Numbered from the stretch's first letter, positions 45,938-51,372 are shown. The stretch: DNA of 64,000 nt from an uncultured Acidobacteriota bacterium (GCA_963741925.1 CAVUJU010000005.1:2625447-2689446); one strand, 5' to 3'. Made by a program: numbers and translations. The notes: generated by a model from the letters alone, not told the origin.

Positions 45938-48900
45938 ATGAAGCGAACCCGGCCTCTCGCGAGGGGGTGGGCGGCTCTCGGCGCCCTCCTCGCCCTCCTC
46001 GCCCCGGCGGCGGCGGCGGCGGGCTCCTTCCGGATCGACGTCGGCTGCGGCAACGCCCCGGGCTACGACATCCGCTTCGCCTACTTCGGGGACCGGATCC
46101 CGTCGATCGCCATGGACCGGTGCTCGGACACGTTCGAGTGCGCGCCGCCCAAGAGCGTGGGCGCCTTCGTCGAGCAGGCCGACCCGGCGTGCGACCCGGA
46201 GGCGGGCGCCTGCGCGATCCGGCTCGTCTTCCCCGTCGAGTTCCGGGGCAACCGGGAGAACATCGACAAGGTGGGCCTCTCCGGCGCCCCGACGCCGGTC
46301 GTCTACTGGTTCGACGGCGCGTCCGATCCGGACTGCATGCCGTGGCTTTCCACCGCCTGCGGCCAGGTCTCGATCTGCGGCGAGCCCGGGGCCCAGATCC
46401 CCTGGGACATCATCCAGACCTACGTGAACCTGGGCACGGCGAGCTGCGCCGATCCGGTGCCGACGACGCCCCACTCGGGGACGTTTTCGATCCTCGCCAC
46501 CTCGTGCCCGAGCCGCTTCTCCTGCCCGAAGCGGACCTTCGATACCTCCGGGGTGACGCCGGAGATGGTCAAGAAGGGGCTGGGCTGCCCCGAGGCCAAG
46601 CACATCTGCAACGGCGACGACCTGAGCTGCCGGGACTGCCTGCTGCCCGGAGTCTCGGCGGGCGGCGCGCCGCCGGGCCTCTCCGGCGGCCCGGCCGGCC
46701 CGGGCGGCGCAAACGGCCCGGGAGCGTTTCTGAATCAAGCCAGTGGCCAGGCAGGCCATCCCGGATTCCCCGGCTCGGGCGCCTGGAACGTGACGCTCGG
46801 CCGCTACTGGAGCCACGAGTTCGCCGAGCGGATCGTGCCGTCGCCGGACGCGAGCCATGTCTGGCTCCTGTCGCGCTTCGCCACCCTCGAGGAATTCGGC
46901 GACCTGGTAGGCGGCGTCTATCAGACGGTCGCCCCGGCCGACGAGTACCGGACCCTGACCTTCTTGGGCGCAGGCCTCGGCTGGGAAGCTCCGGGATCTC
47001 GACGGCACGGTCGACGCCTTCGACGCCACGGGCCGCTGGACGAGCCGGAGCGACAGGAACGGCAACGCCACCTCCGGCGTTTACGACACCTCGGGCCGAC
47101 TCGACCACGTGAGCTTCCCCGACGGCCTCGAGGAGGACTTCGGCTACGACCCGACCTCGGGCAAGCTCGCCTCGATCACCGAGGTGGGAGTCGGTGGGGC
47201 GTCGTCCCGGATCTGGAGCTACACCTGGACCGGCGACGACCTGACCCGGGTGGACCGGCCGGACGGGACGGCGCTTCTCTACGCCTATGGCGATTCGAGC
47301 TTTCCGGGGTATCTGACGCGGGTCACGCTCCTCGGCGCGGACGGCGTCTCGACCCGGGTCGAGCGGGCCTTCGAGCTCGACGCCTCGGGCAACGTGGTCA
47401 AGGCCTGGCGAGGCGACGCCTCCTCGACCGGCCCCGACGCCACCGAGCTCTGGCAGCTCGCCTTCGACGACCCGTCGGCGCCCACCGTCACGACCGTGAC
47501 CGACCCCCTGGGCCAGGTCTCGACCTACCAGCTCGACCGGACCGGGATCGCCCCGGACTACCGGGTGACCTCGATCTCCGGCGACTGCCCGGTCTGCGGC
47601 CTGGGACCGAACGTCCAGCTCGCCTACGCCGACTCGGCGAACCCCTTCCGGCCCACCAGCACGACCGACGGCCGCGGCCTGACCACCGCCATGAGCTACG
47701 ACCCCCACGGCCAGGTGACCTCGCGGACCGAGGCCCTGAGCGAGCCCGAGGAGAGGCTCACCCAGTGGAGCTACGACCCGAGCTTCCCGGCCCTCCCGAC
47801 CGGGATGGACCAGCCCTCGGTCGCCGGCGGCCCCTCGACCCGCTCGACCACCTGGACCCGGGATTCCCAGGGCAACCCGACCGGCCGGACGATCTCCGGC
47901 GCCGAGGCCGGCTCGGGGTTCAGCTTGACGACGGCGACCTCCTTCAACGCCTTCGGCCGGCCCACGGTGATCGACCCGCCCGGCGACACCACCACCGACC
48001 AGACGAGCTTCACCTACGACGCGAGCGGCCTGATCCCGCTCACCCGCACCGACCCCCTGGTTGGCACGACCACCTTCGGCTACGACCCGTTCAACCGCCG
48101 GACCTCGGTCACCGACCCCAACGGCCTCGAGACCACCACGGCCTACGACGGCCTGGACCGGGTGACGGAGGTCCGCCAGGTGGGCCCCGCGACCCCCGCC
48201 GACGACCTGGTCACCGCCGACGCGTACACGACCTTCGGCGACCTCTTCCGGACGACCCTGCCCAACGGGAAGATCATCGAATACGGCTATGACGCGGCCG
48301 GCCGCTTGACCTCCATCGAGCGCCGCCCCGACGCCACGACCCACGGCGAGCGGATCCTCTACACCTTGGACGCCGCCGGCAACCGGACCCGCGAGGAGCG
48401 CCAGAGGTGGGACGCGGGGAGCTCCACCTGGGTCCCGCTCTCGGCCACGGCCTATGACTACCCGAACCGCTGCCAGGTCGACCAGGTCCGCCAGGCGATC
48501 GATCCAGGAGGGGGCGCCCCCGAGGAGGCGGTGACGGCGTTCGAGTACGACTGCGACGGGAACCTGGTCTCGGTCTGGGACCCCGACCACGACCGGGCGA
48601 CCGACCCGCCGACGACGAGCTACGCCTACGACGCGCTCAATCGCCTCGCGAGCGTCACCCAGGCCTGGACGCCCGCCGGCGCCACCGCCGGCACGGCCGT
48701 GACCCGCTACGAATACGACGTGCAGGATCATCTCACCGGGGTCACCGACGCCGAGGGCAACACGACCACCTACACCTATTCGGACCGGGATCTCCTCACC
48801 GGCGAGGCCTCCCCGGTCTCGGACACCACGACCCACGCCTACAACGAGCACGGCGAGGAAACGAGCTCGACCGAGGCCCGCGGCGTGGTGGTGAACCGGA

Positions 48901-51008
48901 CGATCGACGAGCTCGACCGGGTGACCGACGTCAACTACCCGGGCGATGCCACCCTCGACGTTCACTCCGCCTACGACACGGCGCCCGGCTCCTGCGCCAG
49001 ACCCGGCTCCCCCGTAGGCCGCCTGGCCTCCGTCACCCGGAATGGCCAGACCCTGGACTCCTGCTACGACCATTTCGGCCGGCTGGTGACCGACGGCGAG
49101 CTCTCCTACGCCTACGACCCGAACGGCAACCGCACCGGGATCGTCTATCCTGGTGGCGTGAGCGCCACCTACGGCCTCGACTTTGCCGACCGGGAGACGA
49201 GCCTCGAGGTCACCACCCCGGCCGGCGGCGCGACGCCCCACCCCGTCGTGACAGCCGCCGCCTACCTCCCGTCGGGCCCTCTCTCGAGCCTCGCCCTGGG
49301 CAACGGAGCCACCGAGACCCGCTCCTTCGACGGCCGCTACGTGCCCACCGGGATCACCCTCTCGGGCCTGGCCGGAGGCGTCCCCGGCCGCACCTGGACG
49401 TACGCCACCGACCGGGTAGGCAACGTTACCGACATCCTCGAGACGGCCGAGTGCTCCGGCGCCGGCTCGACCGTCGTCCTCGAGAACCAGACTGTCACGA
49501 CGGAGAAGACCTTCACCTCCTGCGCCGACCTCCAGGCCGGCAACGGCTTCGCCGTCGAGAGCCCGGGCCACGTCACCTTCCAGGCGCAGGGCAAGGTCGT
49601 CCTCGCCAGCGGCTTCTCCGTCGGCTCCGGCGCGAGCTTCGCCGCCGGCTCCGGGACCCTGCCCACCTTCTCCCACCGCACCTACAGCTACCAGGCGCCG
49701 CAGTACTTCCTCACCGGGGCCGCCGGCCCCTGGGGCACCCTCGACTGGAGCTATGACCGGATCGGCAACCGCCTCTCCGAGAGCCGCGACGGTGGCACGA
49801 GCGCCGACGGCTATGTCTACGCGACCAACGGGACCGGCGGCGACACCCCCGTCCTCGACCTGGTGAACCTCGCCGTCACCGGCACCCGCGACTACACCTG
49901 GGACGCCGCCGGCAACCTCGACCAGGTGGCCGCCGGTGCCAACGTGATGGACTTCGCCTTCGACGCCGCGAGCCGCCTCGCCGCCGCCGACCGGACCGCC
50001 TCCGGAGGCGGCGCCACCGCCTTCCTCTACGACGGCCGAGGCTTCCTCCGGAGCGCCACCGAGACCACCGGCGGCACCGCCTCCGTCACCCCCCTCTACG
50101 ACTCCGCCGGCCTCCTCCACGCCCTCCGCCGCCAGCCCAGCCCCACGGACCCGATCGACACGACCTACGTCTTCTACCTCGCCGGCCGCCCCGTCGCCCA
50201 GGTCCAGATCGACGGCACAGGCACCGAAACCTGGACCTACCTCACCACCGACCACCTCGGCACCCCCCTCCTCGCCACCGACCAGACCGGAGCGATCACC
50301 TGGCAAGGCGGGCTGGAACCCTTCGGTACCGACTACCAAGCTGGCACCGGCAACGGGGCCAGCGACTATGGCATCCCGCTTCGGCTCCCGGGCCAGTGGG
50401 TCAGTGATGTCTGGGCCGACGCCACATCCGGAGCCGGGATCTACCAGAACGTCTGGCGGTGGTACGCACCTGACGTCGGTCGCTACACGAGACCCGACCC
50501 GCTGTCGCTCAACCATCCCCAGGAAGACGCCTATCTGTACGGTCAGGCGAACCCACTCGTCGAGTTCGACCCGCTCGGACTTGCAGCGAAGATCTGTTGC
50601 AGGCTCCTGGCGAACTTCCTTGCAGGGACCGTATCCAGGCAGCGCCACTGCTACGTCGTGGCCGACGACGGCACCAAGTACGGCCTCTACCCACAGGAGG
50701 TCGGCGGCCGGACGATAGGTGTTCCCAGGACCTTCGACGCCCGGGACGTAGGAGGAAGCTGCCACCAGTGCCCCTGCAGCTCGACGGGCCCACAGAACAG
50801 GTGCTTGCGGAACCAGTTCAACAACTACCCAATTGGCGAGTACCACCTCCTCGGCCCGAACAGCAACACCTTCGCCGGGACGCTTGTGAAGAACTGTTGC
50901 AAGGGCGGCATTCCGCAGGGCGTCGACGATGCTCCAGGCCTGAACGACAGCCCGCCGAAGGACACGGGATTGCGGCCAGTGCCGGATACACACCGCTCAC
51001 GGCCCTGA
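45938..51008 (+). CDS. Rhs/YD-repeat polymorphic toxin with Sec signal peptide, Cys-rich N-terminal domain and novel Cys-rich C-terminal domain; apparent frameshift near 46975-46995
   Basis: RBS gaaggagg then ATG 45938, signal peptide MKRTRPLARGWAALGALLALLAPAAAAAG. Dozens of YD repeats (YDxxGNL/R...) follow. The RHS core ends RYTRPDPLSLNHP...YLYGQANPLVEFDPLGL (~50570). The ~140-aa C-terminus (AAKICCRLLANF...CHQCPCSS...NCCKGG...) has 11 Cys. Confidence 0.85.
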
Positions 51009-51018
51009 ACTCACGACG

Positions 51019-51372
51019 ATGCGACCGACGCCAAAGCAGGTCCTCATCGGCGCTACTGCCGCCGTCGTGGTCTCAACGGCGTTCTTGCCGTTGGTGCCAG
51101 GGTACGGCACCAACCTCGGCCAAGGGGTGGCGCTCGGGGGTCGGGCCCTTGTGGCTCGTGCGGCTTCCTCTGTGTTCGCCGACCAGCATCACGGCGTGGT
51201 CTGGGGCGTCGCCGCCTTGCTGAACGGACTTCTCTTCTTTGTGCCTGGGTGGGCTATCTATGCCGTCACTCGGCGGAAGAGACCTGGGCTCGGTGCTGGG
51301 CTCCTCGTAGCGTGGTGCCTCTTTTACCTCGCCTCACTCTTCTGGCTGTTTCCAGCGCTCGACGGGCCATAG
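51019..51372 (+). CDS. Small polytopic membrane protein, candidate immunity protein for the Rhs C-terminal toxin
   Basis: 117 aa with 3-4 predicted TM helices. Starts 11 nt after the rhs stop. Confidence 0.5.
   Translation: MRPTPKQVLIGATAAVVVSTAFLPLVPGYGTNLGQGVALGGRALVARAASSVFADQHHGVVWGVAALLNGLLFFVPGWAIYAVTRRKRPGLGAGLLVAWCLFYLASLFWLFPALDGP

Follow-up and report, generated by a model that had tools for sequence, protein, structure and literature searches.

A putative Sec-exported Rhs toxin with a papain-like tip and a candidate membrane immunity protein in an uncultured Acidobacteriota bacterium

The rhs gene described here and the small membrane-protein gene behind it lie on a 64-kb stretch of DNA (64,000 nt, G+C about 72%) from an uncultured Acidobacteriota bacterium (GCA_963741925.1 CAVUJU010000005.1:2625447-2689446), hereafter the window, on which all coordinates are counted. 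The gene encodes a signal peptide, a Cys-rich N-terminal domain, a shell of YD repeats, an Rhs core end and a short C-terminal toxin tip. As far as the sequence and its comparison with relatives allow, the locus probably encodes a Sec-exported Rhs polymorphic toxin together with its cognate immunity protein, the tip being a papain-fold domain that would act in the periplasm. The features of the pair, all on the plus strand, are the following (homologous proteins and loci carry P and L numbers throughout).

45926..45940, plus strand: Shine-Dalgarno sequence GGAGG (45926-45930) and ATG start of rhs (45938-45940), read directly from the sequence
45938..46021, plus strand: Sec-type signal peptide, residues 1-28, by inspection of the translation
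46022..46642, plus strand: Cys-rich N-terminal domain, residues 29-235, with 15 Cys, from the Cys positions in the translation
46643..46792, plus strand: Gly/Pro-rich linker, residues 236-285, from the translation and homologue alignment A3
46793..46985, plus strand: shell-start segment GRYWSH(D/E)(Y/F)A.RIV, the last part in the signal-peptide frame, from near-invariant columns of A3 and alignment to L001
46986..46987, plus strand: frame break by one extra A, GGCTGGGA[A]GCTCC, from blastn against homologous rhs loci
46988..50483, plus strand: YD-repeat shell in the +1 frame, including a 70-aa insert at 49449-49658 (PF05593, TIGR01643, NF041261)
50484..50582, plus strand: Rhs core end YTRPDPLS...FDPLGL with aspartyl autoprotease motif (PF03527, TIGR03696)
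50583..51008, plus strand: 141-aa toxin tip (50583-51005) and stop codon (51006-51008), with His22 at 50646-50648 and Ser94 at 50862-50864
51019..51372, plus strand: 117-aa inner-membrane protein with 3-4 transmembrane segments, candidate cognate immunity protein, from hydropathy, homologues and gene context

The rhs product begins with MKRTRPLARGWAALGALLALLAPAAAAAG, which comprises a basic n-region, an Ala/Leu h-region and an Ala-rich AAA-A/G c-region and on inspection reads as a Sec signal; neither a lipobox Cys nor a twin-arginine (RR-Tat) motif was seen in the translation. Signal-like N-terminal peptides are also present in the homologues P0176, P0177, P0179 and P0182. An N-terminal PAAR, VgrG or DUF6531 domain was not matched in Pfam or NCBIfam, and no gene of a type VI (T6SS) or type II (T2SS) secretion system was found among the 29 open reading frames (ORFs) of the window that were scanned against Pfam. 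Hence, neither an N-terminal PAAR or VgrG domain nor T6SS neighbours, the marks of a T6SS-delivered Rhs effector, are present, and the claim of the original prediction, which was made from the sequence alone, that a classical signal peptide replaces the PAAR/VgrG-associated N-terminus is borne out, as is that of a Cys-rich domain ahead of the YD shell. The 15 Cys of this domain fall within residues 37-234. The domain has no Pfam or NCBIfam match, and its 11 homologues, as far as they are named, are proteins of Acidobacteria or Acidobacteriota metagenome-assembled genomes (MAGs); its AlphaFold2 (AF2) model, built on a 10-sequence alignment, is unreliable (pLDDT 48, pTM 0.46) and too poor for a fold search.

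The segment GRYWSH(D/E)(Y/F)A.RIV precedes the YD repeats in every homologue of alignment A3. The shell itself is recognized by 12 copies of RHS_repeat (PF05593, E = 1.5e-44), by TIGR01643 (E = 1.7e-27) and by NF041261, and the PDPLS...DPLGL core that had been read from the sequence is recovered above cutoff by both the RHS core family PF03527 (30.7 bits, cutoff 27.9) and the Rhs_assc_core family TIGR03696 (37.7 bits, cutoff 32.5). Moreover, the core end aligns to the core ends of the solved Rhs/Tc proteins Tse5, Tse15 and TccC3 (E ~1e-7), and by analogy with the Rhs/Tc families, cleavage between shell and tip is predicted after DPLGL. The 70-aa shell insert (ECSGAGSTVVLENQ...GSGASFAAGSG) gives a weak match to the GCX_COOH '3-coathanger stack' family (E = 0.022) and shows 86% conservation in L001, a contig of 399 kb from an Acidobacteriota MAG. 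The orthologue in L001 is an uninterrupted 1664-aa gene with 67% overall identity, which climbs along the protein from 29% in the N-terminal domain through 62-86% in the shell to 89% in the tip. Since the N-terminal domain is only 29% identical between the two, it constitutes the fastest-evolving part of rhs; that this hypervariable domain serves as a receptor-binding module is plausible, albeit speculative. Upstream of rhs, positions 42989-45763 hold a divergently transcribed TPR gene and two to three small ORFs (138 aa at 45102-45518, about 81 aa at 45515-45763) that have no family assignment and no match in PHROGs or NCBIfam. This block is syntenic in three genomes (the window, L001 at 1853-4644 and L002 at 1-2056), and its members may be accessory or regulatory genes.

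The rhs gene had been read as one gene, a reading that does not hold for the sequence as it stands: the frame of the signal peptide runs to ...LGAGLGWE (...TLTFLGAGLGWE) and then continues into unrelated sequence, and the shell resumes in the +1 frame as KLRDLDGTV... In blastn alignments, the window reads GGGAAGCTCC against GGGA-GCTCC in the rhs copies of L015, L002 and L014 (twice in L014), with a gap of 1 nt in each case. The intact relatives P0176 and P0178 read LGAGLGWELRDLDGTV across the junction, and the L001 orthologue aligns straight over it. Past the break, the rhs frame remains open and conserved for 4 kb with a third-position G+C (GC3) of 0.92. A second gene of the window is split likewise, namely ptsI, which encodes Enzyme I in the rpoN-pts region (16684-18490): its N-terminal and mobile domains (16684-17544) and its PEP-binding domain (17426-18490) are read in different frames, with the break at 17513-17521, where dropping one A from ACCCGGGA[A]GCTCGAGG yields a continuous Enzyme I. 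Both breaks are the identical insertion GGGA[A]GCTC in the same 9-mer, and its occurrence in two unrelated genes suggests a context-dependent sequencing or polishing error. Other long genes of the window are intact, among them those for urocanase, URO-D, a sigma-54 activator, an AidB-like dehydrogenase, a 937-aa kinase and the primase. The frame break thus probably arose in sequencing or assembly and is less likely the mark of a true pseudogene. A general miscall at methylated GAGCTC was considered and rejected, because this site occurs 149 times, 13 GGGAGCTC/GAGCTCCC sites are intact and two other GGGAAGCTC sites (4534, 19431) lie in frame; any error would therefore be linked to context and not general. 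Programmed frameshifting was rejected as well, as there is no slippery heptamer and the relatives are simply in frame. As a separate observation on the composition of the window, CAGCTG occurs only once in 64 kb compared to 149 copies of GAGCTC and 139 of CTCGAG, a strong avoidance that may reflect a restriction-modification system. Tandem rhs genes, together with rhs genes split into several ORFs, were also seen in the Acidobacteriota MAGs L014 and L015, where they may represent either long-read indels or real decay.

The tip had been described as a C-terminus of about 140 aa with 11 cysteines that matches no toxin domain; its length of 141 aa agrees, the number of cysteines is nine, and the lack of a match applies to the window tip only in part. 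In Pfam, the tip gives a sub-threshold match to Peptidase_C97/PPPDE (E = 0.003) over the region of the motif GPNSNTF, and nothing was found for it in PHROGs or NCBIfam. A word-indexed search of 5.8 billion proteins returned 19 homologues of the tip, most of them located behind an Rhs core end and two with a precomputed DUF3750 (PF12570) annotation. When close family members were scanned individually, 10 of 20 matched DUF3750 (P0029, for instance, with 26.8 bits against the 25-bit cutoff) and 4 of 20 matched PPPDE. A profile search of 1.84 billion cluster representatives extended the family to 433 members at E <= 1e-3 (217 at E <= 1e-10), with the domain located C-terminally in all proteins listed. 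Among 135 of these representatives, DUF3750 was recognized in 56, the RHS core in 30 and eCIS_core (PF13699) in 21, which shows that the same tip is also fused to delivery domains other than Rhs. PF13699 is, we take it, the family formerly named DUF4157. Since homologues match DUF3750 and the tip itself stays below threshold, its membership of the DUF3750 superfamily is by transitivity only. The family has been found in an Acidobacteriota MAG (the nearest genome), Thermoanaerobaculia, Holophagales, Nitrospirota and Gammaproteobacteria, and its more distant relatives are spread over Actinobacteria, Chloroflexi and Methanosarcinales; in the window, G+C dips at the tip and the partner gene.

An AF2 model of the tip, based on an 18-sequence alignment (pLDDT 86, pTM 0.82), comprises five strands followed by two helices, with Ser94 at the N-terminus of helix 93-105 and His22 on strand 20-26. 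Its structural neighbours are PPPDE2/deSUMOylase (score 7.2), the T6SS effector TseH (6.8), PLAAT4 (6.6), Aichivirus 2A (6.4), YiiX (5.7) and CLN5 (5.1); these matches are modest. The tip profile matched no PDB chain sequence even at E <= 10, and with the core end included it found Rhs/Tc core ends only. Across 126 family members spanning the domain, Ser94 and Asn95 are invariant (126/126), His22 is conserved in 125 and Asn93 in 124, and Thr96 is invariant or nearly so; these residues are the signature of a putative catalytic site. From fold and conservation together, we infer that the tip is a divergent DUF3750/PPPDE-like member of the circularly permuted papain (NlpC/P60) fold, which also includes the PPPDE, LRAT/PLAAT, TseH and YiiX group. 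In the model, Ser94 appears to sit where the relatives carry the nucleophilic Cys, and the position of the His before the nucleophile would correspond to the papain arrangement in permuted order. Hence, the tip is best regarded not as a wholly new domain, but as an uncharacterised Ser/His, disulfide-rich member of the permuted papain superfamily.

The nine cysteines of the tip occupy positions 5, 6, 23, 60, 63, 65, 74, 105 and 106. Cys74 and Cys105 are invariant in the 126 members, Cys65 is not conserved, and the others tend to be kept or lost in pairs. Given in the order both : first only : second only : neither, the counts amount to 106 : 0 : 2 : 18 for Cys6/Cys23 (p = 7e-20), 72 : 13 : 0 : 41 for Cys63/Cys106 (p = 4e-22) and 100 : 20 : 1 : 5 for Cys5/Cys60 (p = 1e-3). 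This pattern points to four disulfides (5-60, 6-23, 63-106 and 74-105) and therefore to folding of the tip in an oxidising compartment. Cys23, which lies beside His22, would be structural rather than catalytic, since 16 members have Ala instead and have lost Cys6 with it.

The gene behind rhs, described in the original prediction as a small gene for a protein with 3-4 transmembrane segments located 11 nt downstream, starts with an ATG at 51019, which is 10 nt past the rhs stop. Its 117-aa product features strong hydrophobic segments at about residues 8-30, 58-85 and 90-115, a weak one at 32-55 and a TRRKRPG loop, and the predicted topology thus stands. Nine homologues were found (seven of 117 aa and two shorter gene calls of 92-93 aa) with 66-100% identity, and the protein belongs to no Pfam, NCBIfam or PHROG family, so that no known immunity family is matched. 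In L001 the gene lies behind the intact orthologous rhs at the same spacing, and ahead of that rhs the window's arrangement of a TPR gene and small ORFs is found again. In L002-L007, the main rhs carries a different tip with a 148-aa partner, and farther downstream an orphan 198-aa tip protein (P0002, 70% identical) is followed by the 117-aa gene. The gene also stands behind truncated remnants of the tip in L065 (residues 84-140) and L062 (residues 122-138), and in L063/L064 it is found alone after a different tip-partner pair, still within the rhs locus. Thus, four independent contexts, orphan cassettes included, place it behind the tip or what is left of it, and it was never found outside an rhs locus in the contexts of the nine homologues. 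An immunity gene would be expected to persist in this way while its toxin decays, and comparative genomics suggests that the 117-aa protein is most likely the cognate partner, i.e. the immunity protein, of the tip. The reading as a toxin-immunity pair is well supported by these comparisons, and the pair proposed in the original prediction holds as such, with the partner following the tip in L001, L002-L007, L062 and L065; its toxin domain is new only within the bounds of the DUF3750/PPPDE-like superfamily.

Further partners came to light in 46 genome loci that encode tips related to that of the window. Tips with 40-62% identity to that of the window (L009, L010, L019-L023, L026) are accompanied by proteins of about 172-216 aa with a lipoprotein-like leader and a C-terminus SGGWK or a close variant, and tips with 29-40% identity (L012, L025, L027, L039 and others) by lipobox-bearing proteins of about 100-200 aa. 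The lipoprotein partners have no significant Pfam family and one sub-threshold PD40 match, and no partner of any kind matches a known immunity family. Taken together, the tip family is associated with at least three unrelated partner families, all of them extracytoplasmic. As close tips (48-62% identity) use a lipoprotein partner, the 117-aa protein is one of several alternatives and not the partner of the whole family. The disulfides, the three extracytoplasmic partner families and the Sec-exported carrier jointly indicate a periplasmic site of action; on these grounds the toxin would act outside the cytoplasm, most likely in the periplasm of the target cell.

Directly past the pair, the rhs locus is interrupted by an element with an XRE-family regulator and a primase, the features of which are the following.

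51486..52004, minus strand: XRE-family helix-turn-helix (HTH) regulator at the left end of the element (HTH_31/HTH_3)
51823..52356: second, overlapping SymE/AbrB-like ORF (PF08845)
52250..52594, plus strand: SymE/AbrB-like small ORF (PF08845)
52602..55259, plus strand: DnaG-type primase with Zn-ribbon, Toprim and C-terminal P-loop region (Pfam, NCBIfam)
55526..56212, plus strand: displaced rhs 3' fragment within an ORF at 55356-56246 (blastn, PF03527, RHS_repeat)

The two SymE/AbrB-like ORFs match PF08845 with E = 1.7e-11 and 9e-7, and a SymE-like ORF is also part of the element in L066. The copy in the window is devoid of the integrase that normally follows the primase. Beyond it, the rhs fragment duplicates positions 49817-50506 (82% over 692 nt; 86% to the rhs of L001) and ends with ...RPDPLS (...RPDPLSPDKPRAGILP*) without a toxin tip, so that it looks like the displaced former 3' end of the gene. 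A near-identical XRE protein is encoded behind the 117-aa gene in L063/L064. The order of tip and partner, XRE gene on the minus strand and primase on the plus strand recurs in a Burkholderiales MAG (L008/L009), L012 shows the order primase, integrase, tip and partner, and an IMG/VR contig has the same element order following an rhs gene for a protein with signal peptide and unrelated tip. Identity to the window primase is 62-63% for the primases compared, among them those of the Burkholderiales MAG and of a contig with 58% G+C, compared to 72% in the window. In metagenomes there are at least 568 primase relatives; of the best 80 of these loci (L067-L146; 59-66% identity, hosts unclassified), 71 have a tyrosine integrase behind the primase and 52 an XRE gene ahead of it. 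Rhs core-end profile matches occur in 39 of the 80, always on the strand of the primase and either before the XRE gene or 0.2-1.8 kb past the integrase, and on both sides in at least nine. Loci with both flanks include L068, L071, L088, L127 and L139. Furthermore, a search for att-type repeats showed that the flanks of the element share 50-1500 bp of the rhs 3' core with 70-100% identity, ending near the junction of core and tip, which fits site-specific and homologous insertion alike. The element thus looks as if it lives in, and perhaps remodels, arrays of Rhs tips. In L001, past the tip-immunity pair, positions 10881-11796 hold two rhs-internal fragments (corresponding to window positions 47666-47925 and 49006-49641) and a partial XRE remnant, which are evidence of a past rearrangement at the same locus. 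Elsewhere in the window, a group II intron reverse transcriptase/maturase (RVT_1 and GIIM) is encoded at 24873-26246.

The nearest analogue found for the element is rAID-1 of Bacteroidales (bioRxiv 10.1101/471110), which likewise places a tyrosine recombinase beside arrays of orphan immunity or tip cassettes. In elements of the window type, the recombinase travels with the XRE gene and a primase of about 1000 aa that rAID-1 lacks, and the flanks consist of Rhs core ends and tip cassettes on both sides; in addition, the copy in the window has lost its recombinase, and where a host can be given, it is an Acidobacteriota bacterium (window) or a Burkholderiales MAG (L009) instead of Bacteroidales. 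No paper describing a primase-integrase element in rhs loci was found in the literature.

Several observations weigh against a functional, periplasm-acting toxin with a papain-like tip. The rhs gene is frame-broken in this sequence, and no export machinery for a periplasmic protein of 1,700 aa was seen among the 29 ORFs scanned with Pfam. As regards the tip, it stays below the gathering threshold of PPPDE (17.8 vs 29.2 bits), gives no DUF3750 match at E <= 1 (the Pfam gathering threshold being 25 bits) and finds no significant match in the PDB with Foldseek (best E 0.19, the top matches again being Aichivirus 2A). The pocket of DUF3750 is positively charged, which disfavours a serine nucleophile (PMC10318531). 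In addition, the relatives carried by extracellular contractile injection systems (eCIS) are presumably injected into the cytoplasm, a poor fit to a strictly periplasmic target, and tips with 48-62% identity pair with an unrelated lipoprotein. The first of these points leads to the possibility, doubtful in our view but to be taken seriously, that rhs is a true pseudogene in this organism, which would have lost the exported shell along with the toxin and would retain only the immunity gene, or possibly the locus as a recombination reservoir, as something still useful. Apart from the extra A relative to homologous rhs loci, this would agree with further decay at the locus (the integrase-less remnant of the element and the tip-less rhs fragment), with the fragmented rhs genes of L014 and L015 and with the retention of a toxin-less immunity gene in L063/L064. 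On the other hand, the identical insertion in ptsI points to a sequencing or polishing error, and the long, conserved open frame with its high GC3 likewise speaks against this reading. The MAGs of the closest relatives carry Flye-style contig names, which we take to mean long-read assemblies, and this too speaks for an error.

The remaining alternatives concern the mode of action and the partner. It is improbable that the toxin acts in the target cytoplasm, as most characterised Rhs tips do, with its cysteines binding a metal instead of forming disulfides: the CxxC-like spacing C60-x2-C63-x-C65 and the cytoplasmic delivery implied for some relatives by eCIS-core carriers would fit, yet the pairwise loss of Cys6 with Cys23 and of Cys63 with Cys106 suits disulfides better than a single metal cluster, all three partner families feature signal, lipobox-like or transmembrane segments, and the carrier itself is Sec-exported. 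We accord a similarly low probability to a tip that is no hydrolase at all, but a membrane-active or binding toxin or a pseudoenzyme that is blocked in the bilayer by its polytopic partner, comparable to immunity against pore-forming colicins. Such a role would account for an integral membrane protein as the partner in this clade and for a Ser in place of the nucleophilic Cys, in a site whose charge is unfavourable for serine catalysis (PMC10318531), and the structural matches are modest enough to permit it; it is opposed by the near-invariance of the His22, Asn93, Ser94, Asn95 and Thr96 signature over 126 divergent relatives, by the lack of hydrophobic helices in the AF2 model of the tip and by the pairing of most related tips with lipoproteins instead of polytopic membrane proteins. 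Very unlikely, finally, is an assignment of the 117-aa gene to the XRE-primase element, or a function of its product in export or maturation. The gene does adjoin the XRE gene, both in the window and in the two loci L063/L064 that have no tip of this family in front of it, L001 retains a remnant of an XRE gene behind it, and its product resembles no recognisable immunity family; but in L002-L007, L062 and L065 it stands behind a tip or remnant with neither XRE gene nor primase nearby, related elements in other phyla lack it and lie beside other tip-partner cassettes, and it tracks the tip and not the N-terminal export region.

According to the reading we favour, that of a Sec-exported toxin with its immunity protein, the Sec leader would export the Rhs protein from the cytoplasm of the producer, the YD shell would enclose the tip, and the aspartyl-protease core end would cut after DPLGL, the latter two steps being modelled on the Rhs/Tc families. 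Since the host is a diderm Acidobacteriota bacterium, an outer-membrane step would be needed. The tip, a papain-fold enzyme stabilised by four disulfides, would then act in the periplasm of the target cell, where our preferred guess is that it hydrolyses an ester or amide linkage, either of peptidoglycan or of a membrane lipid (the latter on the model of LRAT/PLAAT), and the 117-aa inner-membrane protein of the producer would neutralise it.

A system of Rhs toxin and immunity protein is in itself ordinary and of a well-known type. Rhs toxins with signal peptides are an established class, labelled 'T2SS' by Zhang et al. 2012 (PMC3482391). With these WapA-type proteins the locus shares the Sec leader in place of PAAR or VgrG, the YD shell, the DPxGL core end, a C-terminal toxin that varies, an immunity gene directly behind it and the orphan tip-immunity cassettes in relatives; it differs in its diderm Acidobacteriota host and in the 15-Cys N-terminal domain without family assignment. 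The catalogue of PMC3482391 lists several Cys-based papain-like toxin domains, mentions neither PPPDE nor LRAT and does not include the tip domain. DUF3750 is papain-like and among the few families with a conserved Ser for the catalytic Cys, the activity of which was left open by the authors (PMC10318531). It shares with the tip the NSN(T) motif, the invariant Ser and the permuted order with the His upstream of the nucleophile, in addition to the direct Pfam matches of many close homologues, whereas the tip of the window is sub-threshold and its clade is disulfide-rich and carried as a C-terminal cassette on Rhs and eCIS proteins. As DUF3750 has no assigned function, the relationship confers no activity on the tip. 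Compared to PPPDE/DeSI (Peptidase_C97), LRAT/PLAAT, YiiX and CLN5, the tip has Ser for the catalytic Cys and only 9-14% identity; these enzymes are found in the cytosol or in eukaryotes and act on SUMO, phospholipids or thioesters, substrates that cannot be carried over to the tip. A precedent is TseH of Vibrio cholerae, the toxicity of which is confined to the periplasm and countered by the protein that the following gene encodes (PMC4453574). In comparison (PDB 6v98), it is stand-alone T6SS cargo with a Cys nucleophile, and its immunity protein TsiH is unrelated to the 117-aa protein. No paper tying DUF3750, or PPPDE with DUF4157, to toxins was found in the literature.

The system would give DUF3750-like domains, a family with Ser for Cys whose activity is in question, a role as interbacterial toxins and a likely compartment, the periplasm. 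A wider reading, which we advance tentatively and regard as rather unlikely, joins the 433 clusters into a family of Ser-nucleophile papain-fold toxins that attack the envelope from the periplasm, are carried by both Rhs and eCIS proteins and meet at least three unrelated families of extracytoplasmic immunity proteins. If true, the tips would be the first Ser-for-Cys papain-like enzymes shown as active weapons. As a separate part of this reading, the XRE-primase-integrase elements may be specialised carriers, inserting at the 3' ends of rhs genes and bringing in or displacing toxin-immunity tips across phyla. The compact pair of a 141-aa tip and a 117-aa membrane protein, together with the natural lipoprotein alternatives, bears on how unrelated immunity proteins neutralise one fold, and the element among the Rhs tips may account for the movement of tips between phyla. 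Moreover, the locus points to Sec-dependent Rhs toxins with a hypervariable Cys-rich N-terminal domain in the Acidobacteriota, an abundant soil phylum in which antagonism has barely been studied.

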